Below, one piece after another: positions 52,147-64,000 of a DNA stretch of 64,000 bases (its first letter is position 1; every line of letters starts with the position of its first letter). Position numbers and translations under genes: made by a program. Source of the DNA: an uncultured Bacteroidales bacterium (lineage in GTDB: Bacteria; Bacteroidota; Bacteroidia; Bacteroidales; VadinHA17); contig CAVRZV010000011.1 in NCBI GenBank assembly GCA_963725785.1, positions 165,956-229,955 on the forward strand, written 5' to 3'. A model generated the notes under the pieces. The model was not told the DNA's origin. It saw only the letters and a list, made by a program, of their open reading frames with translations, and searched no databases.

Positions 52147-54350
52147 TTAATCATCCAGCCCTGACTGGTCGATCATTCTGACTTTTTCCTCAAGTGTTTT
52201 TATCAGTTTTTTTGCGCTTTCGATTTTGTCTTCCACCTCTCTGATCATGGTATCAGCGTTGGTAGATTTTGCAAAAAAACCAATATTATTCTCCCACAAA
52301 ACTATGTCACTTTCAAGCTGTTTAATCTTTGTAAAAAACTTATCACGCTCATTTCTGACTTTTCTTGAAGCTTTAGGATTTGCTTTAAGATTGTCAAGTT
52401 TAGTTTTATATTTAAGGATACTTTTGTCCTCATCACCAATTTTCAGTTTATCAAACTCTTTATTAATGGCTGCCCGATATTTATTGGTGATTTCATCTTT
52501 CATATTAAACGGAACAAAACCAATCTCAGTCCATTTCCTCTGCAATTCTTTCAGGCGTTCGAAAGCAGATTGAACATCAGTTCCCGGTTCAAATTTCTCA
52601 AGTTCATCAATGATGGAGAGTTTTGCTTTCAGATTATCTTCGTAAGATGTATCGAGTGCGGTAAAAAACTCTGTCTTCCTGTTAAAAAAATGATCACATG
52701 CTTTGCGGAATCTCTTCCAGCATCTTTCCGATTGTTTCCTGGGAACGGGACCAATTTCTTTCCACTCTTTCTGCAGTTTTATCAGAGCATCGGAAGTAGC
52801 TTTCCAGTCTGTGCTTTCCTGAAGACTCTCAGCCTGGATACATAATTCCGTCTTCAGCTGCAGGTTATTCATCTGAATCTCTTTATTGTCTGCATAGAAA
52901 CCACGCTTCTTCTCAAAAAAAGTATCACATGCGTCTCTGAATCTCTGATAAACCCTGTTATTTTGCTTTTTAGGAGCAAATCCAATTGTACGCCACATTT
53001 TCTGTAACTCAACTACCTTATCTGCCCTTTCATCAAATTCTTTGAAGTTTTTAATTTCCAGCAGGTTTATGGCATCTACCTCTTCACACAGAGCTATTTT
53101 AGCATCAAGGTTTTTTCTCTGATCGTCTTTCTGTTTTTCAAAGTACTCATGATGTCTTTTGTTTATTTGAGAGGTAGCTTCCTTAAATCTCTCCCAGATC
53201 TCATTTTTTGATTCCTGTGGAACAGGGCCTATCTCGCGCCACTGGTTATGAAAATCCTGTAAAAATCTGAAGGCGTTGACCGGATTTGGTTCGAGAAGGA
53301 GTTCTTCTGCCTTTTCGCATAACAAAACTTTTGCCTCAAAATTCTTTTTAAGGTCAAGGTCTCTCAGCTCTTTATTTATTTTAATATAATCATAGAAAAT
53401 TTCCACATAATGATGATAATTCTCCCAAAGATCTTTCAGCGAAGTCTGAGGCACCACGCCAATAGAATGCCATTCATTCTGAAGCGCTCTGAAGTCATGA
53501 AATGTCTTATTTATTGATTCTTCCCTGTTTACCAGATCTTTGATTTTATCTATTATGTCATACTTTTTTTTCAGGTTTTCATATTTTTCAGCTTCCTGAA
53601 TTTTATTATAGTCGGTTTTTTTCTCTCTGTATTTTTCGAGCAGGTGTTTTACGCGGGCATCTTCAGGGTCAACCCATTGCCTGTACTCCTCAATTTTGCC
53701 TCCACCTTCAAGAAACTTGGCTTTCCTCTCTTCAGCTTCACTCTTTAATTTCTTATAGAAGTGTATTTTTAAGCGTTCAACATCATCCCTGATCTCAACA
53801 GTAGGCCTGTTTTCAATAATCAGAGCCAGTGTCTCAACAAGTTCATGCTTTGAATAACCGGAATAATCAACCTGCGGCAGCTCAATATTTTCAGACTCAT
53901 CAGCTTCCGCAATCACAGGTTCTTCCTTAACCTCCTCAACTACAGGTTCTTCCTTAACCTCCTCAACTATAGGTTCTTCCTTAACCTCCTCAACTATAGG
54001 TTCTTCCTTAACCTCCTCAACTACAGGTTCTTCCTTAACCTCCTCAACTACAGGTTCTTCCTTAACCTCCTCAACACAGGTTCTTCCTTAACCTCCTCAA
54101 CTACAGGTTCTTCCTTAACCTCCTCAACTACAGGTTCTTCCTTAACCTCCTCAATCACAGGTGTCTCATCCGGCTTAAGCCCTTCATTTTCGGTTATTGT
54201 CTCTGTATTAATTTCAGGATCTCCTGCGTCACCAGGAGATTCAAGTTCTTGCGCGTTGTCCGCTTGTGTGGCATCCTCAGTTCCGGTGGCGTTTTCGATA
54301 GCCCCGGATTGTTCTTTACGAACAGAGTCATCCGGATTTTTCTTGGTCAT
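52147..54350 (-). CDS. DUF349 domain protein with acidic N-terminal repeat tract; frame broken in the tract
   Basis: Repeated WRxIGxVP...W.RF...CD.FF units. The N-terminal ORF (54048..54350) joins via the VEEVKEEPV repeats. Confidence 0.85.
53915..54156 (-). repeat. 27-bp tandem repeat, 9 units, encoding VEEVKEEPV
   Basis: Unit ACAGGTTCTTCCTTAACCTCCTCAACT on the + strand; unit 6 (54050-54075) is 26 bp and shifts the frame. Confidence 0.92.
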
Positions 54351-54644
54351 AATCAATCCTTTTATAGTTCAGATCATTGTCAGATATTTGCACACCATGG
54401 CAATCCATGGAATTTTCAGAGTACGAAAATATTGAAATATTTAATAAAACTCAAAGTTTTGACATAAATAAATGTGAGAATCAGATATTAAGACCCTCTT
54501 TAAATGAAGTATTGAAAATATAGAAGTTGACAATTTCATATTTTAAGATGTCAATTACAGGAATTCAGAGAGATAAATTCTATATTTGACCATAAATATG
54601 ATCTAAAAAGGTACTCTGACAAAATAAAATTAAAATATTGAAAG

Positions 54645-55132: not shown

Positions 55133-56422
55133 CTATTTTCTGTTTTTCGACACCATATACCGGAATGGATTTATAATCTTCTGGAGAAGTCTGATCCTCT
55201 CGGTAATGATTTCCGCTGTACCCTGCATATTCTGATTAAAATCAAGTTTTTTACCATATAACGTCGAGAGGCCATCAGGCAATTCAATTTCAATAACATA
55301 AGCATCACCGGAAGGAACTAGTGATTTTGATTTTACAGTACCTCTCACAATTCCATATTCGAGGTAAGGATAACCACTCAGTTTGATATTAACCTTTTGA
55401 TTTATTTTCACTTTGCCGGATCGTTGCATTTTAAGATATATTCTTCCCAGATAGCTGCCAGTAGACAGAGGAACTATGCTCACCACCTGTTCATCTTTAA
55501 CAACTGACTGATTGGCACTCCAGAACTTTGTAAATGAAACAATTCCATCAATGGGCGAAATAAGAAGATAAGTATTCTCCCATAAATTTATCTGGGCCTT
55601 GAGGTTTAAAAAAGATTCGCGCAAAACTGAAACAAGCTTTTCCTTTTCATCCACACGGGTTATGCGATAATCCTGCAAAAGCTGTCGTTTTTCTGCTATC
55701 TCAATTGATTTTGCGGCATGGTCAAGCCTGACCTGCTGAAGCTCTATGTTGACTTTTAAAAGTGATTGATGTGATGTCTCAAATTCACTTTCAGGTATAA
55801 CCTTTCCTGCAAAAAGAGAAGAATCTCTCTTGTACTTTTTTGCCTCAAGACGCCGGTTTTCAGAGTAGAGATTTTCTTTTACTTTTAATCTGCTGACATA
55901 TTCCTGGATACTGACTATTTCATTGTTAAGCGAAGCTATTTTATTACCATACAAATCGTTGGTAATATAGCTATTTAAGTCAGACAGGTTTTTAAGAAAA
56001 GAGCCGTAAATTCCCTGTAATTCACCAAGCCCGGCCAGTAGAGGTAACATCCTGGCAGAAAGTAATTCAGGCCACCTTATAGTATCAATTGTCTGTTTAA
56101 GTAAATTAATTTCCTTCATTGACGCTGTTGTTTCCATTACAGCAATTAATTGTCCGGCCTTAACTTCTTCCTTTTCTTTTACAGAGAAATAGTTAATGCG
56201 TCCGGTTACTTTTGTGACAAGATTCACAGGCGGATTAGTTGTTGTAATTTCGACCGGAGCAGGAATAGTATCCGGATACCTGATCAGCCAGGCAAATACA
56301 ATAAACAGAATAAAAAGCAAAAGAAGAGTAGTTGTACCCCATCTGAGAATTCTCCCCGGCGGTCTTCCCATAATTTCTTTTACAGGTTCAGAGTACTTTA
56401 TTTCCGGCTGCTGATTCTTCAT
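55133..56422 (-). CDS. HlyD-family membrane fusion protein of a peptide exporter
   Basis: N-terminal TM, coiled-coil middle, LISPIDGIV, GKVKINQKVNIKLSGYPYLEYG, GTAEIITE. Confidence 0.9.
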   Translation of the reverse strand: MKNQQPEIKYSEPVKEIMGRPPGRILRWGTTTLLLLFILFIVFAWLIRYPDTIPAPVEITTTNPPVNLVTKVTGRINYFSVKEKEEVKAGQLIAVMETTASMKEINLLKQTIDTIRWPELLSARMLPLLAGLGELQGIYGSFLKNLSDLNSYITNDLYGNKIASLNNEIVSIQEYVSRLKVKENLYSENRRLEAKKYKRDSSLFAGKVIPESEFETSHQSLLKVNIELQQVRLDHAAKSIEIAEKRQLLQDYRITRVDEKEKLVSVLRESFLNLKAQINLWENTYLLISPIDGIVSFTKFWSANQSVVKDEQVVSIVPLSTGSYLGRIYLKMQRSGKVKINQKVNIKLSGYPYLEYGIVRGTVKSKSLVPSGDAYVIEIELPDGLSTLYGKKLDFNQNMQGTAEIITERIRLLQKIINPFRYMVSKNRK

Positions 56423-56431
56423 AAATGATCG

Positions 56432-58618
56432 CTAATTACCCAGTTCAAGTTGATTTTTTACCAGATTGTAATATGCTCCCCGCTTCCCGATAAGTGATTC
56501 GTGTGTACCAGTTTCTATTATCCTGCCGCTATCGAGAACAACAATTTTATCAGCATCTCTTACAGTGCTTAGCCTGTGAGCAACAACAATAACTGTTTTG
56601 TCTTTAAAGAATCCTGTAAGGTTTTCAACAATTGCTTTTTCGTTATTTGCATCAAGAGAGTTGGTTGCTTCATCAAAAATTATAATATCCGGATCCTTAT
56701 AGATTACCCTGGCAATAAGCAGTCTTTGTTTCTGTCCTTCGCTCAGACCATGGCCATTTGCTCCTATCCTGGTATTATATCCGAGAGGCAGTGATTCGAT
56801 AAATACTTTTATATTTGCTATATCAACTGCTCTGACCAACTTTTCCTCATTAATATCTTCTGATCCGGGAGCAATATTAGCTGCAATAGTATCGGGGAAA
56901 AGGAAACCATCCTGCATAACCGCACCCACTTTCTCTCTCCAGACTTTCAGGCTGAGATTTGATAAACGAGTATCGCCAATAAGTATTTCACCGGCTACAG
57001 GATGATAAAAACCAAGCAACATTTTTAATAAAGTTGTTTTTCCACTACCGCTCGTACCGACAATTGCAGTTACTTTATTCCCTTCGATAAACAAATCAAT
57101 GTCTTTTAAAGCAAACGGTGACCGGGGGCCCTCATACTGGTAAGAAAGACTATTAATATATATATCCTTTTTGTCGGGAAGTTTTCTTACTTTCATCTCA
57201 GGTTCAGGCTCTTCTTCCTGCAGGTTATGTACTTCAGCCAGCCTGTCGAGACTCATTTTCGCATCCTGCGACATACGAAAAAAGCCAATTATCTGGCTGA
57301 CAGGTACATTCAACTGACCTATAATAAACTGAACTGCAAGCATCATTCCAAGGGTCATATTACCTTTCAGAACTGCTGTTGCCGCAACTATAGTTATCAG
57401 GACGTTGGTGACTTCATTAATGAATGTAGCGCCTGCTGATTGATACTGGATTATGCTCAATCCTCTGATCTTCAATCCAAACAACGTCGCCTGCAGCTTT
57501 TCCCAATCCCATCGCATACTCAATTCACTCTGGGTCAGCTTAATCTCCTGCATTCCGTTTACTATATTAATAAGCTTGTTTCCTGAAACAGACATTTGCT
57601 TAAAACGCTGATGATCCAGAGCAGCCCTCGATTTCATGAAAATTGAAACCCAAAGTATATATAGTACTGACCCCGTCAGAAATAAAGCGAGGATTTTAAT
57701 ACTATATACTGCAAGAACAATTCCAAAAACAACCAGATTGAAAAATGAGAACAAAATGTTCAGACTTGCAGAAGTAAGAAACTCTTCAATCCGGTTGTTA
57801 TCTTCAATCCGTTGAAGGATATCACCTGTCAGCTTGGTATCAAAAAAAGCCACAGGAAGTGACATCAGTTTTTGAAGAAATCCCGATATCACGGCCACAT
57901 TCACTCTTGACCCGATATGTAGAAGCAACCAGCCTCTTATGAATTCAACAGACATCCTCCCAAAAACAAGAGCAAGCTGGGCAAAAAGAATCAGATAAAT
58001 AAATCCTATATCGTTGTTATTAAGGCCAATATCTATAATTGACTGGGTAAGAAAAGGAATAACCAGCTGGATACAGCTTCCAAGAACTAATCCCAGAACC
58101 AATTGGTAGAGATATTTCCGATAGATTCGAAAATATTTAAAAAGGAATTTAAAACCGTTTGTTTTATCCGGTTCATTCTCATTGTCATAAAGTGCCGGAG
58201 TAGGTTCAATTATTAATACCAGGCCTGCCGGTATTCCATCAACAACGGTAGATGCCCAGTTCTGAACAAATTCTTCACGAGTGAATTCCATTAGTCCAAC
58301 AGCAGGATCGGCGATCCAGATTTTGTCGTTTTTGATCTTGTAAACAACTACAAAATGTTTTTGCCTCCAGTGAACTATACATGGAAATGGGACATTCTCA
58401 TTCAAAATCTCAAAATGGACTTTTACTCCTATAGTTCTGAATCCCAAAGAATCAGCAGCTTCTGATAGTCCCAGGAATGAGACTCCCTCTCTTGTTATGT
58501 AACACTTTTTTCTTAGAGATTCAAGTGAAAAATTCATTTTGTAAAACCCTGCTACCATCTTTAGACAGGCAGGTCCGCAATCCATTGCATCAGGCTGTTT
58601 TACAAATGGGAAAGACAT
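56432..58618 (-). CDS. Peptidase-containing ABC transporter (C39 peptidase + TMD + ATPase)
   Basis: QPDAMDCGPACL (Cys), HWRQKHFVV (His), IADPA (Asp); six TM helices; GTSGSGKTT, LSEGQKQR, FDEATNSLD, VAHRLST. Confidence 0.95.
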   Translation of the reverse strand: MSFPFVKQPDAMDCGPACLKMVAGFYKMNFSLESLRKKCYITREGVSFLGLSEAADSLGFRTIGVKVHFEILNENVPFPCIVHWRQKHFVVVYKIKNDKIWIADPAVGLMEFTREEFVQNWASTVVDGIPAGLVLIIEPTPALYDNENEPDKTNGFKFLFKYFRIYRKYLYQLVLGLVLGSCIQLVIPFLTQSIIDIGLNNNDIGFIYLILFAQLALVFGRMSVEFIRGWLLLHIGSRVNVAVISGFLQKLMSLPVAFFDTKLTGDILQRIEDNNRIEEFLTSASLNILFSFFNLVVFGIVLAVYSIKILALFLTGSVLYILWVSIFMKSRAALDHQRFKQMSVSGNKLINIVNGMQEIKLTQSELSMRWDWEKLQATLFGLKIRGLSIIQYQSAGATFINEVTNVLITIVAATAVLKGNMTLGMMLAVQFIIGQLNVPVSQIIGFFRMSQDAKMSLDRLAEVHNLQEEEPEPEMKVRKLPDKKDIYINSLSYQYEGPRSPFALKDIDLFIEGNKVTAIVGTSGSGKTTLLKMLLGFYHPVAGEILIGDTRLSNLSLKVWREKVGAVMQDGFLFPDTIAANIAPGSEDINEEKLVRAVDIANIKVFIESLPLGYNTRIGANGHGLSEGQKQRLLIARVIYKDPDIIIFDEATNSLDANNEKAIVENLTGFFKDKTVIVVAHRLSTVRDADKIVVLDSGRIIETGTHESLIGKRGAYYNLVKNQLELGN

Positions 58619-58777: not shown

Positions 58778-59344
58778 TTGTTTAAAAAAATATCTGATAT
58801 TGACTTACTTGAGGGTGTACGCAATCAGGATGGAAAAGTCCTGAATTGGCTATATGACAATTATTTACAAGCTGTCAAAAAACATGTTCTTAATAACAGC
58901 GGATCTATTGAAGATGTTTCCGATGTTTTTCAGGATACCATAATAATTCTGTATAAACAGATATCAGAGGACCATTTGAGTCTAACAACCGACCTCAAAG
59001 GTTATTTTTTTGGGATCGCACGTAACGTCTGGAGTGCACAGCTTAGAAAAAAACAAAAAACATTTGAACTGGAATTTGAAATTACCGATGAAGCGGAATC
59101 GGAAAACAGATACGACCCTACTCTGGAGAGGATTGTCAGCAGAGTATTTCAAAAACTAAAGCCTGATCAGCAGATGGTGCTGAATTTGTTCTCCGAAGGT
59201 ATTTCCTACGAAGAGATCGCGTCGAAGATGAATCTTAAAAATGAGATCTACGCCAGAAGGAAAAAATATCTGTGCAAAGAGTCTCTTCTTGAGCTTCTGA
59301 AAGAAGATCCTGAATATCAGGAGTATTTGCGTTTTCTAAAATAA
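58778..59344 (+). CDS. ECF (sigma-70 family) sigma factor
   Basis: 188 aa; region 2 (LYDNY...EDVSDVFQDTIIILY...YFFGIARNVW) and region 4 (LKPDQQMVLNLFSEGISYEEIASKM). Confidence 0.9.
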   Translation: MFKKISDIDLLEGVRNQDGKVLNWLYDNYLQAVKKHVLNNSGSIEDVSDVFQDTIIILYKQISEDHLSLTTDLKGYFFGIARNVWSAQLRKKQKTFELEFEITDEAESENRYDPTLERIVSRVFQKLKPDQQMVLNLFSEGISYEEIASKMNLKNEIYARRKKYLCKESLLELLKEDPEYQEYLRFLK

Positions 59345-62300
59345 AATCCGTAAAACAGAAGCAGGATTACAATGGGTACTGTAACAAAAACTTTCCATTT
59401 GGCAGAATAGTACAAAGGCTCATTATTTCCATATACTACCAGCGCAGACCAGAAATAAGGATGTGACCTTAACCTGTCGGCTGTTTTTAAGAAGCCGATT
59501 CTTGCCTTTCTTAGTGATACACTTTTCGAATACCCTCTTTTGAGGTTTTTATAGAACATTTCAACAATCTCAGTACCCGATTTATCTTCGATTTCCCACA
59601 TTGACATCACCACTGACTGACTTCCTGAATAGATAAAGCCTCTGGCAAGACTTAAAATACCTTCACCTGAATTCAACAGTCCTGTTCCGGTATTACACGA
59701 GCTGAGTACCACCATTTTGGCTTTAAGGGGAATTCCATAAATTTCAAATGTCTTGAGATACCCATCTTCAGGAGGATCATTTCCCCGGTCGAAGATCAAT
59801 GTTGAATGCATAGGATCTTTTTCATTTACCAGGGTATGCATAGCCAGATGGATAATATCGTATTTCCCTGATTCATTTTTATATACCGATTCTTTTGCTT
59901 CATTGTTTTCAAAAAGAATTCCCCCTGTTATTCTTGATACATATTCTGCTTCCTGCCGGGCATAGGGTAGATCGTTTAGCTTACCCAATCCTGCCTGTCT
60001 CGACATTAATACTGATTGTATATCAATGGGTTCAGGGTAATTTGGAGCAAATGCAATTAGCTTGTTCCTTCTGCTGGATTCCTTTTTTGACGATTCAGCT
60101 AAAAAAGTAGCAGAGTATGTATACGAAATATCAAAATCGTTCATCATGTAATTCAAATCCCTGTACATAAGGCCTTCTCTCTGAACTGCATCAGTTGGAA
60201 TAGTTTCAAATGGCAGGTATGAAAGAAAACTGTCAGGTGAAATAAATACCTTGTCAGAAATAAGGTATGATCTGACCGGTTCTATCAAAATTTTATATAA
60301 CCTGTATCCGGTTGACTGGAATTCATTAAATTTCTTAGAAGCATTTTCAGCAGGCAATGGCAGCGATAACAGACCCCTGAACCGTTTAACATCATTGAAG
60401 AATGATGTATCGACAGGTATTGCAAGCAACTGCTGATTTTTCCTGTTTACAACAAAAGTATACAATACAGTATCTGAGATCACATAATTAATATAATTTC
60501 CATTGTGGCCAATTACTGCAGGAATATCCTTAAGCCCAATCGTTTGAGTGTTATATTTAATGGCATAATACTCCGGATATTGTTTTTCAAATACAAGAAT
60601 GAGGGAATCTCTTTTTCTTATATCCTCCAGAAGATTTTCCTTCCATTTTGCTATTAATAGCATATTTGGGGTTTCTCCGGCCGATTCTTCGGCTATGCGG
60701 ATATTGAACAGGCTGATTTCACGCTTCAGATCCCTTTCATAGTCTCCTATCTCAGAAGGGATATGAAACTGTGCTGCCTTCAATTCCCGGGTGGAAGTCA
60801 ATAAAACTGCAACTTTGCTTTTTTCCGAATATTCAAATGCCTTTTCTCGGAAATACGGATCAGCAGTTTTATTGTACAGGAGATTAAAATCCCGTATCGC
60901 ATTTAGATACGACTCCCTGTATTTGTCTCCCAATATTAACCTGCTTTCCTCTTCACTGATATTTATTCTGACTCTATCGATCAGCGAAACAATTAATTCT
61001 GAAGTATTTGATGCCGCTTCAAGGATTTTCTGTTCGGGCTTTCTCATATAGATATCCCATAAAATATTATATTTTAGCCTGAGTATCCTGAGAGAAGTTT
61101 GGTCGGGCTTCAAAGATTCAAGTCCGGGATTAACTAAATTTGCTTTTATAGCAATATTATCACTGTCCGGAAAAAGTAATGACTGAATTATTTCCAAAGC
61201 TTTTTCTGATTTGCCTTCTACTTCCAGTGAACGAGAATAACCTATATAAACAGATGTTTTTAAGAATTGGTCATGAACATTTTTATTAACATAATCCATG
61301 CACTCCAGATAACATTCAATTGATTTTCTATTGTCGATCCTGTAATCTCTTAAATAGGCTGCATAATTATTTAAAACTTCAAAATAATCGCGGGGATTAA
61401 GTTCAAATCGGGCTTTTGACCTGACCAGAGCATTTTTCAACAGTTTCTCACCCTTTTTTTCTTCATTATCATTCCCAAGAAAAATACAATAGCTGTTTAT
61501 CAGGTTATAGCTTAATGATGAATTGTTGGAAATAGAAAGTGCTACCCCCTTCTCGTAATACTTACCTGCTTCTTCTTTGAGGCCAAGAGCATAATAAGTT
61601 ATTGCCAGGCCATTCAGTAAATTAATAAAATTGTCATTTTGATCGATGCCGGAAGTTTCATAAATTGATTCAGTTTTGTCGAGGTAGATTTTTGCTTTCG
61701 AGAAATCAGCCAGCCTGTTATAGCATACACCTAAATTGTAGTAGAGATCGGCCATTACAGCAGAAGATACCTTTCCGGGGTTTTTGTTTGCGATTGACAG
61801 CGCAATATTTGAATTATTTAATGCTATTTCATATTTTTTCTGCTCTACATAAGCTGAAATCAGCGACAAATATAAGCTTACCAGATCCGGACTTGATTCA
61901 CTATAAATTACTTTACCTATCTCAACCGATTTCGATGCATATTCCTCAAACTTATTTAAATCTTCGAGATTGGAGTATACAACACTAAGATTATAAAGTG
62001 CCCTGGCATAGCGAATATCAAGTTCATTGTTTTTTTCTTTTATAGAAATGCATCGATTGAGGTACAATATTGCTTCATTATAGCTTTTTATCTTTAAAAA
62101 ATAGATCCCGATTAAATAATAAGACTCCGACAAGATGGTATCACCAATGCTATTGGCACTTATCTTTTGCAATATGTTGTTAACTGTTAGTCTGCCCTGT
62201 GACATATCACCGTTAGTAAGCCTGGTTTTAAGGGATTCATTCAGATATTCGACCTCCTTTGAGGTCTTGTTAATGGAATCATTAAGCGGGCTTATGATCT

Positions 62301-62421
62301 GTTTATTCAGGTCAAAGTTTAAAAAAGATCGTTCGGTACCATAGATAACAGATGTATGAAGAGATCCGGTAGAGATTAAAACATAAAATATAAATCTTAT
62401 AATTCGATTCCTCGATTTCAT
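59317..62421 (-). CDS. TPR + CHAT (caspase-like) protease with C-terminal membrane anchor
   Basis: Multiple TPR-like repeats; ISPDSFLSYLPFETI, IIHLAMH (His), VVLSSCNTG (Cys), SVVMSMWEIED, HPYFWSALV; C-terminal hydrophobic helix followed by RKRK. Confidence 0.9.
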   Translation of the reverse strand: MKSRNRIIRFIFYVLISTGSLHTSVIYGTERSFLNFDLNKQIISPLNDSINKTSKEVEYLNESLKTRLTNGDMSQGRLTVNNILQKISANSIGDTILSESYYLIGIYFLKIKSYNEAILYLNRCISIKEKNNELDIRYARALYNLSVVYSNLEDLNKFEEYASKSVEIGKVIYSESSPDLVSLYLSLISAYVEQKKYEIALNNSNIALSIANKNPGKVSSAVMADLYYNLGVCYNRLADFSKAKIYLDKTESIYETSGIDQNDNFINLLNGLAITYYALGLKEEAGKYYEKGVALSISNNSSLSYNLINSYCIFLGNDNEEKKGEKLLKNALVRSKARFELNPRDYFEVLNNYAAYLRDYRIDNRKSIECYLECMDYVNKNVHDQFLKTSVYIGYSRSLEVEGKSEKALEIIQSLLFPDSDNIAIKANLVNPGLESLKPDQTSLRILRLKYNILWDIYMRKPEQKILEAASNTSELIVSLIDRVRINISEEESRLILGDKYRESYLNAIRDFNLLYNKTADPYFREKAFEYSEKSKVAVLLTSTRELKAAQFHIPSEIGDYERDLKREISLFNIRIAEESAGETPNMLLIAKWKENLLEDIRKRDSLILVFEKQYPEYYAIKYNTQTIGLKDIPAVIGHNGNYINYVISDTVLYTFVVNRKNQQLLAIPVDTSFFNDVKRFRGLLSLPLPAENASKKFNEFQSTGYRLYKILIEPVRSYLISDKVFISPDSFLSYLPFETIPTDAVQREGLMYRDLNYMMNDFDISYTYSATFLAESSKKESSRRNKLIAFAPNYPEPIDIQSVLMSRQAGLGKLNDLPYARQEAEYVSRITGGILFENNEAKESVYKNESGKYDIIHLAMHTLVNEKDPMHSTLIFDRGNDPPEDGYLKTFEIYGIPLKAKMVVLSSCNTGTGLLNSGEGILSLARGFIYSGSQSVVMSMWEIEDKSGTEIVEMFYKNLKRGYSKSVSLRKARIGFLKTADRLRSHPYFWSALVVYGNNEPLYYSAKWKVFVTVPIVILLLFYGFYFRKRKYS

Positions 62422-62470: not shown

Positions 62471-62661
62471 ATAAAACCAAATCATTTTAATTAATTATGA
62501 AAAATGCATAGCTCTCTAATCAATTGATTATGTGTAAGAAAAAAAATATTTTAAAAATATGTGTTTTTTTTGTGTCACAAAATACCATCTTCGGACATGT
62601 AGTAGTGTGTAATCTGAATTAAAGAATGTCAAGACTAAGTACTAAACTAAAAATAACTGAT

Positions 62662-62796
62662 ATGAAAACCGAGAATTCAAAAATGACTATCGACAATTTC
62701 AATAATTTTGCACTTTCAAATGAAGAGATGATTAACATTCGTGGTGGCGAAGGTGATCCGACTATAAAAATAACAAAACCCCCGATAATTATCTGA
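62662..62796 (+). CDS. Double-glycine-leader peptide precursor (44 aa), not in the ORF track
   Basis: MKTENSKMTIDNFNNFALSNEEMINIRGG|EGDPTIKITKPPIII*. The leader matches LSxxE(L/M)xxIxGG exactly. A-rich translation initiation region; hairpin just downstream; C39 exporter in the same cluster. Confidence 0.85.
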   Translation: MKTENSKMTIDNFNNFALSNEEMINIRGGEGDPTIKITKPPIII

Positions 62797-63032: not shown

Positions 63033-63782
63033 ATGAAAACAGTAGATTTTTCATACTTCATCGAACGGCATATTGCCGGTGAGATGAGTGATGCAGAAAA
63101 ACAGTGGTTCCTTAAGGAACTTGACGGTAACGAGAAACTCAGAAATGAGGTCAATCTCAGGAAGAGAACCGATGAAATTCTCAAGGATCGAAACGTAATG
63201 TCGTTAAGAAATAAACTTTCTGAAATTGAGAAGACCAGAAACGGAGCAATTGAACCTTCGAAAACCTCTAAAAAATCAAATTTCATTAAGTATGCCGCAG
63301 TTATTGCAGGAGTGGCGCTTATTGGAAGCTTAACATTGTTCTCGGGGAAGCATCTTAGTAATGATGAAATCCTGAAACGCTATTACAAAACTTATGAACC
63401 ACCGACAAGTCAGAGGTCAGCAAATATAGAAACTGATGAAGATTTTACTCTGGCTCTTGAGTTTTATAATACACGCGATTATGAGAAGGCTGCAATTCTT
63501 TTCAATAAAGTTCTTGAAAATAAGCCAAACGATATGCAGACTGTTTTACTAAAAGGTGTTTCAAATTTTGAAGAACAAAAATATCCGGAAGCCAAACAAT
63601 CATTTAATAAGGTGATAGACAACAAAGACAATCTTTATATTGATCAGGCTCAATGGTATCTGTCCTTATGTTATCTGAATACCAATGAAAATGACAAAGC
63701 TATACAACTATTGAAAGTAATTGTAAAAGATAATGGCAATTATAAAGACGAGGCAAACAAGATAATCAGGGAATTAAAATAA
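63033..63782 (+). CDS. Anti-sigma-like membrane protein: N-terminal helical domain, one TM, C-terminal TPRs
   Basis: IERHIAGEMSDAEKQWFLKELDGNEKLRNEV (zinc-free anti-sigma-like), TM FIKYAAVIAGVALIGSLTLF, TPR motifs ALEFYNTRDYEKAA and QAQWYLSLCYL. Confidence 0.72.
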   Translation: MKTVDFSYFIERHIAGEMSDAEKQWFLKELDGNEKLRNEVNLRKRTDEILKDRNVMSLRNKLSEIEKTRNGAIEPSKTSKKSNFIKYAAVIAGVALIGSLTLFSGKHLSNDEILKRYYKTYEPPTSQRSANIETDEDFTLALEFYNTRDYEKAAILFNKVLENKPNDMQTVLLKGVSNFEEQKYPEAKQSFNKVIDNKDNLYIDQAQWYLSLCYLNTNENDKAIQLLKVIVKDNGNYKDEANKIIRELK

Positions 63783-63839: not shown

Positions 63840-64000
63840 ATGACGAGCGAGATGGAGAATGATTCGAATATATCGAGGAATGATATGGTAAATTGCCCGA
63901 CAGTTTTAATTGGGATCTCTCATGAGATGAGAACTCACATGAATGCAATTGTAGCATTTTCATTTCTCATGAAAGATAATGGTTGCAACGATTCGGACCG
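63840..64000 (+). CDS. Start of a HisKA-domain (histidine kinase-like) protein, truncated by the window end
   Basis: ATG at 63840 gives MTSEMENDS...VLIGISHEMRTHMNAIVAFSFLM, matching the H-box pattern SHE(I/M)RTPMNAI. Confidence 0.65.
   Translation, partial: MTSEMENDSNISRNDMVNCPTVLIGISHEMRTHMNAIVAFSFLMKDNGCNDSD

Follow-up and report, generated by a model that had tools for sequence, protein, structure and literature searches.

Here we report on a gene for a putative membrane-tethered cysteine protease in a 64,000-nt stretch of DNA, hereafter the window, from an uncultured Bacteroidales bacterium of the VadinHA17 lineage (assembly GCA_963725785.1, contig CAVRZV010000011.1, positions 165,956-229,955). 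The gene (59317..62421, minus strand) encodes a protein of 1034 amino acids in which tetratricopeptide repeats (TPR) precede a C-terminal CHAT domain. It runs tail to tail into a plus-strand gene for an extracytoplasmic function (ECF) type sigma-70 factor of 188 amino acids (58778..59344; Pfam Sigma70_r2 and r4_2; TIGR02937, E 7e-15), and beyond its start lies a plus-strand gene for an anti-sigma-like protein of 249 amino acids (63033..63782). These genes belong to a conserved and hitherto undescribed Bacteroidales gene set that combines an ECF sigma factor, its presumed membrane inhibitor, a CHAT protease and a lineage-specific, putatively exported peptide.

The CHAT protein and its active site

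The protease gene was delimited as an open reading frame (ORF) and characterized by Pfam matches to CHAT and TPR families, by an AlphaFold2 (AF2) model and by Foldseek comparison of that model. The CHAT profile (PF12770) matches residues 704-999 with an E value of 1.6e-51 and 175.9 bits (cut-off 24), covering profile positions 3-289 of 289, and TPR families are recognized at approximately residues 72-330. In the AF2 model (pLDDT 82, pTM 0.72), a helix at residues 2-25 and a disordered stretch at 26-49 lead into a helical-repeat array (50-637), which is followed by the CHAT domain (641-998) and a final helix (1007-1033). The array, all-helical from H50 to H637, takes in the repeats found by Pfam and constitutes a TPR and helical-repeat superhelix encoded at 60511..62274, whereas the caspase-like CHAT domain, delimited by the Pfam match, motifs, conservation and the model, is encoded at 59428..60501 (both on the minus strand).

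An earlier note on this DNA, based solely on inspection of the sequence, had claimed an intact catalytic dyad from a His motif (HLAMH) and a Cys motif (LSSC). Both motifs are present, at residues 858-862 and 906-909, respectively, with the catalytic codons at 59848-59850 (His858), 59836-59838 (His862) and 59695-59697 (Cys909) of the minus strand, and all three residues are invariant across 50 aligned orthologues. An even sample of the order Bacteroidales (301 genomes, 208 genera) revealed further CHAT homologues of about 1100 amino acids and 27-39% identity in 55 of the genomes and 35 of the genera. The 24 CHAT proteins encoded in the 20 such loci that we fetched, hereafter the distant paralogues, all carry the motifs hHhAMHT and LSxCxTG unchanged, down to 27% identity. 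By these features the product is a TPR-CHAT cysteine protease with an intact His-Cys dyad and predicted activity.

The best Foldseek matches of the model are separase, Csx29 and DdvA, with E values between 1e-13 and 1e-11, and the fold bears out a separase-type architecture, in which a caspase-like domain sits C-terminal to an array of helical repeats. When the protein sequence and a family profile were run against the PDB, the matches were all TPR proteins, and DdvA, Csx29 and separase were not among them. Kinship to these three proteases is thus visible at the level of the fold only, and DdvA is no nearer than the other two.

Topology of the CHAT protein and its partner

The earlier note also described the N-terminus as basic residues followed by a signal-like hydrophobic stretch, and the C-terminus as a hydrophobic helix plus RKRK, from which it predicted an extracytoplasmic, membrane-tethered body. 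Both descriptions hold. Residues 1-27 (62341..62421, minus strand) comprise an n-region, MKSRNRIIR, and an h-region, FIFYVLISTGSL, as judged by hydropathy, family conservation and the AF2 helix at 2-25, and the pattern is found family-wide. Residues 1008-1034 (59320..59400, minus strand) comprise a predicted transmembrane (TM) helix at 1008-1028, KVFVTVPIVILLLFYGFYF, with a Kyte-Doolittle peak of 2.06, and a basic tail, RKRKYS, at 1029-1034; this assignment draws on the Kyte-Doolittle and Hessa scales and on the AF2 helix at 1007-1033. The two ends are the most hydrophobic segments of the whole protein.

To place these segments in the family, 65 members were scored on the Hessa biological hydrophobicity scale, with windows of 12 and 19 residues. 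The C-terminal 19-residue window has a median dG of -2.4 kcal/mol, and the tail behind it carries at least three Lys or Arg residues in 59/65 orthologues and almost no acidic residues, an arrangement that by the positive-inside rule corresponds to an N-out/C-in orientation. At the N-terminus, hydrophobicity is confined to the 12-residue window (median -1.4); over 19 residues (+3.4) the segment is too polar for a TM helix in most members, so that a cleavable signal peptide fits better than a TM anchor. A rule-based scan found the hydrophobic 12-residue window in 56 of the 65 orthologues and Lys or Arg ahead of it in 58.

The same signals recur at increasing distance. A database search with the CHAT protein retrieved 878 relatives; identity is 58-89% and length about 1034 amino acids in the best 120 of them. 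Nearly all full-length sequences among these 120 open with basic residues that lead into a hydrophobic segment and close with a hydrophobic helix and [RW]KRKYS. Among the distant paralogues, 20/24 have a signal-like N-terminus, three of them with lipoboxes, and 23/24 have a C-terminal TM segment with a basic tail; several possess textbook signal peptides (...LHAQ/K and ...AFT/Q, the slash marking the predicted cleavage site). A terminal pattern kept in almost all full-length sequences among the best 120 homologues and in paralogues of 27-39% identity is not due to chance, and its recurrence in about 200 orthologues and in Bacteroidales paralogues from many genera supports the location well. 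We conclude from these sequence signals that the CHAT protein is very probably periplasmic and tethered to the inner membrane by its C-terminus. As the last AF2 helix starts at residue 1007 and the CHAT domain ends at 998, the catalytic domain would lie only about 10 residues from the membrane.

A role of the RKRKYS tail as a sorting signal of the exosortase, rhombosortase or sortase type was considered and rejected. A genome scan yielded 36 heterogeneous C-termini with a TM segment and Lys or Arg residues, none of which shows the ...YGNNxPLYYS...FYFRKRKYS pattern, and because this pattern occurs in no other protein of the genome we treat it as a plain anchor. The strong conservation of RKRKYS can instead be attributed to dual coding with the C-terminus of the sigma factor, DPEYQEYLRFLK, together with the general need for basic residues. 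As the ORF ends show, the two genes overlap convergently by exactly the 28 bp given in the earlier note (59317..59344), with FRKRKYS* read on one strand and QEYLRFLK* on the other, and a tail-to-tail overlap of 16-31 bp is kept in 76/78 related loci. Antisense interference between the two transcripts over this conserved overlap is conceivable.

The partner encoded at 63033..63782 consists of a four-helix N-terminal domain, a TM segment at residues 84-104 with Lys and Arg on its N-side, and TPRs at residues 133-249 that are predicted to be periplasmic. The N-terminal domain is highly conserved and was modelled as four helices (pLDDT 81). Its fold matches in the PDB, eight in number, are all anti-sigma domains of RslA or RsiW, with TM-scores of 0.5-0.69 at E values of 0.7-6.6. 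The HxxxCxxC motif of zinc-binding anti-sigma domains (ZAS) is absent: the corresponding stretch is KELDGNEKL, which offers neither Cys nor His as a ligand. The product of 63033..63782 is likely to be a zinc-free anti-sigma factor with its TPRs in the periplasm. With an anti-sigma-like domain (ASD) at the N-terminus, a single TM segment and C-terminal TPRs, the partner would expose its repeats on the same side of the membrane as the CHAT body, in agreement with what the earlier note had anticipated.

Gene neighbourhood, precursor peptide and promoter-like element

In order to assess conservation of the locus, 80 related loci were fetched from species-level genomes, all of them metagenome-assembled genomes (MAGs) of Bacteroidales. 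Wherever the flanks reach far enough the order is the same: the anti-sigma-like gene (divergent), the CHAT gene, the ECF gene (convergent), a peptidase-C39 ABC exporter (PCAT) gene and an HlyD gene. In the window, profile matches and synteny place the PCAT gene at 56432..58618 and the gene for the HlyD-family membrane fusion protein at 55133..56422, both on the minus strand. Genes past HlyD are chromosomal housekeeping genes. No cas genes or CRISPR array lie near the CHAT gene, whose neighbours are the PCAT, HlyD, ECF sigma, anti-sigma-like and HisKA genes, and PADLOC returned neither a defence-system assignment nor a Csx29 match.

The association extends well beyond the close relatives. In 18/20 distant loci the CHAT gene has both an ECF gene and an anti-sigma-like gene beside it, and there these two are direct neighbours transcribed in the same direction. 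The partner gene of the window is not directly downstream of the ECF gene, as the CHAT gene lies between them; in most of the 18 distant loci the partner homologue directly follows the ECF gene, as it does in a second, paralogous triad of the same genome (contig C10, 11830-15884). This second triad comprises an ECF sigma factor of 199 amino acids, a TM-TPR protein of 343 amino acids and a convergent CHAT-TM gene, whose frame of 732 codons has neither a start codon nor an N-terminal signal and which may be truncated or a pseudogene. The distant triads keep the sigma, anti-sigma and CHAT genes and have no peptide or PCAT genes, which ties the core job of the protease to the sigma/anti-sigma pair and not to peptide processing. 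Functional coupling of the CHAT protein to this pair is, in our judgement, probable. Our literature searches found no account of a CHAT/sigma/anti-sigma module in Bacteroidota, and CHAT is absent from the main text of the ECF reclassification paper.

The anti-sigma and CHAT genes stand about 580 bp apart, and the interval contains, on the anti-sigma strand, a conserved ORF for a double-glycine precursor peptide of 44 amino acids (62662..62796, plus strand), composed of the leader MKTENSKMTIDNFNNFALSNEEMINIRGG and the mature part EGDPTIKITKPPIII. Of 72 related loci, about 70 contain the precursor gene. Cleavage at the GG site is predicted to yield a linear mature peptide of 15 residues. The peptide could be assigned to no family in our family search, which gave only a weak match of the leader region to TIGR04149 (E 0.09). 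In one related locus (L027) the interval holds the precursor gene as five identical copies in tandem, and another locus (L021) has two divergent copies.

Upstream of the peptide gene we found a bipartite promoter-like element, TGTCACAAA-N-GACATGTAG (TGTCAC-N15-GACAT; 62573..62605, plus strand), whose spacing is conserved: the gap is fixed at 15 nt in 64/68 loci, with the element 39-83 nt ahead of the peptide ATG. It occurs exactly once in the 3.85-Mb genome. We regard it as a candidate ECF-like element on the strength of its form and conservation, in which case the regulon would be a single operon; the TGTC/GACA inverted repeat that it contains means that it could be an operator instead. The ECF gene is preceded by a TATATTTG box and the CHAT gene by its own sigma-A-type box, TATCTTTG; both genes thus have TAnnTTTG boxes, unlike the peptide operon.

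Downstream of the anti-sigma gene, the peptide strand continues into a gene for a sensor-less HisKA protein of 261 amino acids that runs off the window (63840..64000, plus strand) and is conserved in this position in 63 loci. Followed into its continuation (L083:796-1581), the protein has no sensor domain and no TM segment; its gene starts 57 bp after the anti-sigma gene. Related HisKA copies lie near several distant triads, and the protein is a possible output of the circuit.

Variation in the mature peptide was compared with variation in the proteins of the locus. The C-terminus of the peptide covaries best with residues 221-420 of the CHAT protein (partial r 0.26), and also with the TPRs of the anti-sigma factor (partial r 0.18); no covariation was found with the ASD, the TM segment, the linker or the PCAT. 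Mature peptides end in PP[IV]x[IL], and the juxtamembrane linker of the anti-sigma factor (residues 111-127) carries a conserved RYYKxYEPPTxQRS. That the shared Pro-Pro reflects mimicry of a binding or cleavage site is pure speculation.

A proposed circuit, its alternatives and its relatives

Export and anchor signals, an intact catalytic dyad and a fixed association with a sigma/anti-sigma pair can all be read from the sequence itself. To account for them together, we propose that the CHAT protein is exported by the Sec pathway, so that the whole TPR-CHAT body would reside in the periplasm and only the RKRKYS tail in the cytoplasm, and that it would serve as the protease and sensor arm of a triad whose other members are the ECF sigma factor and an anti-sigma factor of single-pass ASD-TM-TPR build. 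The PCAT/HlyD pair would cleave the self-made linear peptide behind GG and export it, and the TPR surfaces of the protease, of the anti-sigma factor or of both would sense a periplasmic signal, here probably the peptide. The membrane-proximal CHAT domain would then cut the periplasmic part of the anti-sigma factor in a site-1-like manner, and an M50 site-2 protease, for which the genome has a gene, would complete the cleavage and free the sigma factor. The latter would finally drive the single TGTCAC-N15-GACAT promoter of the peptide, anti-sigma and HisKA operon. To this overall explanation, an exported and tethered TPR-CHAT protease acting by a site-1-like cut in a peptide-wired sigma/anti-sigma triad, we assign a probability of roughly 0.45. 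Its individual parts differ in strength. That the CHAT domain cleaves the anti-sigma factor is plausible and at this stage tentative. The most specific version, in which the caspase-like protease is a receptor-effector whose TPRs bind the exported peptide, activating CHAT for site-1 cleavage of the zinc-free anti-sigma factor, we consider unlikely.

Several points weigh against the proposal. Cleavage of the anti-sigma factor is conjectural for every member of the family, and for DdvA itself site-1-like self-clipping ahead of RseP is a proposal only (PMC11506125). The h-region of the present CHAT protein is short, at about 12 residues, is immediately preceded by an Arg and has no clear AXA site. 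The fold matches of the partner's N-terminal domain lie at E values of 0.7-6.6, and this domain has no significant match in Pfam, NCBIfam or PDB profile searches. The synteny may owe something to the shared ancestry of related MAGs. Covariation of the peptide, with partial r 0.18-0.26 over 13 tests, is weak and exploratory. Finally, no RNA-seq run with the CHAT locus was found; two DNA runs, each with about 5% of its words in common, were the only matches.

The strongest alternative retains a periplasmic protease within a sigma/anti-sigma circuit and gives it a substrate other than the anti-sigma factor: the exported peptide, which it would trim in maturation or destroy in quenching, the protease itself or another envelope protein, or else simple holding of the anti-sigma factor through TPR-TPR contacts in the manner of RseB. 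The topology and synteny evidence fits it equally, covariation of the peptide is strongest with TPR residues 221-420 of the CHAT protein, and dyad mutants of DdvA show no phenotype in unperturbed cells (PMC11506125). Against it, the distant triads keep an invariant dyad in the absence of peptide and PCAT genes, so that peptide processing cannot be the core function of the family, and the catalytic domain, so close to the membrane, is well placed for a juxtamembrane target. We hold this alternative to be possible and somewhat doubtful.

A less probable view is that the protein is an envelope-directed effector, a defence or suicide protease triggered by phage or damage, which the sigma/anti-sigma pair only accompanies or regulates. 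CHAT domains do act as effectors in CBASS (cyclic-oligonucleotide-based anti-phage signalling) and CRISPR systems, and DdvA with its sigma factor DdvS controls an antiphage island (PMC11506125). However, PADLOC gave no defence match and the neighbours are chromosomal housekeeping genes; the box ahead of the CHAT gene is of housekeeping type and not the ECF-like element; and position and order are fixed across many genera, with no signs of a mobile island. We judge an effector role improbable.

It is very improbable that the CHAT body is cytoplasmic, with an N-terminal stretch that is no working signal and a C-terminal helix as tail anchor, in the manner of HetF, a membrane-anchored CHAT protease that is taken as cytoplasmic. 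The short h-region with its preceding Arg would fit such an arrangement, but the Lys- and Arg-rich tail would then lie outside the cell in nearly every family member, against the positive-inside rule; moreover, paralogues have canonical signal peptides or lipoboxes, and the TPRs of the partner and the exported peptide are both expected outside the cytoplasm. Equally improbable is a catalytically dead scaffold that only binds partners: the active site of DdvA has been described as incomplete (PMC11506125) and activity in the present family is a prediction, but His858, His862 and Cys909 with their surrounding motifs stay invariant down to 27% identity.

The known system nearest in design to the proposed circuit is DdvA of Myxococcus xanthus, described in 2024 as an anti-sigma factor made of a zinc ASD, one TM segment and a periplasmic TPR-CHAT region of about 900 residues (PMC11506125). 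Its CHAT domain spans residues 702-991 with H862 and C907, and its structure has been solved (PDB 8rot and 8rw5; PMC11506125). The statement of the earlier note that the well-studied CHAT proteases, Csx29 and separase, are cytoplasmic is thus outdated, since the TPR-CHAT part of DdvA is periplasmic. The active site of DdvA is described as having no three-helix motif and as becoming complete in a dimer, and DdvA-like fusions have been reported only from Myxococcota and one Comamonas (PMC11506125). The present protein shares with DdvA a length of about 1000 amino acids, a TPR-CHAT body with a C-terminal CHAT domain and His-Cys dyad, a paired ECF sigma gene and, here by prediction, a periplasmic location; DdvA is also among its top Foldseek matches (E 1e-12). 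The two differ in that DdvA is its own anti-sigma factor and is anchored at the N-terminus, whereas the CHAT protein has no ASD, with only about nine residues ahead of its hydrophobic segment, and is anchored at the C-terminus. The anti-sigma factor is here a separate, zinc-free ASD-TM-TPR protein, and DdvA has no associated peptide or PCAT and does not belong to the Bacteroidota, as the present family does. With the fused ASD missing and the anchor at the opposite end, the CHAT protein is most aptly seen as a variant of the DdvA design that is split and stands alone.

Other known systems share single elements. Csx29 of the type III-E CRISPR craspase system (Csx30/RpoE) has the TPR-CHAT fold (Foldseek E about 5e-13) and, as here, a cleavable inhibitor stands between the protease and a sigma factor of ECF type, cleavage in our case being conjectural; Csx29 is reported to cleave Csx30, a protein with a link to an ECF sigma factor (PMC10028731). 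Unlike the CHAT protein with its export and anchor signals, Csx29 works in the cytoplasm, where it is guided by RNA and bound to Cas7-11. Separase offers the best overall fold match (PDB 9hma, E 1.3e-13), with a helical-repeat array and then a C-terminal caspase-like domain, but is eukaryotic, cytoplasmic or nuclear, larger and of unrelated function. HetF of Anabaena likewise combines a CHAT protease domain with a single TM segment and TPRs, arranged in the order CHAT-TM-TPR with CHAT at amino acids 1-555 and no signal peptide, and acts in cell division and heterocyst control (PMC8406250). It differs in its N-terminal CHAT domain without a signal peptide, which is presumably cytoplasmic for this reason, and in having no sigma factor role. 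As to the peptide, a feed-forward model has been put forward for microbisporicin biosynthesis in which the exported ribosomal peptide inactivates the anti-sigma factor MibW and frees the ECF sigma factor MibX (PMC4203916). The likeness lies in sigma release by an exported ribosomal peptide in that model; the system differs in being actinomycete, in its lantibiotic peptide and in having no CHAT protease.

DdvA, a fusion protein, is the only periplasmic TPR-CHAT protease studied so far. In the Bacteroidales family, protease and anti-sigma factor are distinct proteins; the family is widespread (35/208 sampled genera) and, in the lineage of the window, comes with a putatively exported linear peptide of 15 residues as the obvious candidate ligand. 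Split proteins and a peptide that can be synthesized make a possible site-1 role of caspase-like proteases for ECF sigma factors amenable to testing, and the system may be the first case of peptide signalling in Bacteroidota. Should the receptor-effector version be true, the phylum would possess a circuit of peptide autoinduction that works through regulated intramembrane proteolysis and not through a two-component system.

Minor observations concern the genes further out. Beyond the window, the HisKA gene is followed by a region for a TPR-PD40-OmpA protein (L083:1663-3799), which in this genome is broken up into two ORFs, of 243 and 509 amino acids, that overlap, and in relatives is a single ORF of about 700 amino acids (e.g. 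L004:1581-3701); a frameshift or an assembly error is possible. On the far side of the HlyD gene, an ORF of 102 amino acids with EEVKEEPVV repeats (54048-54356, minus strand) lies just upstream of a gene for a DUF349 protein (52147..53916) and may be either an N-terminal extension of the latter or a separate acidic repeat protein.

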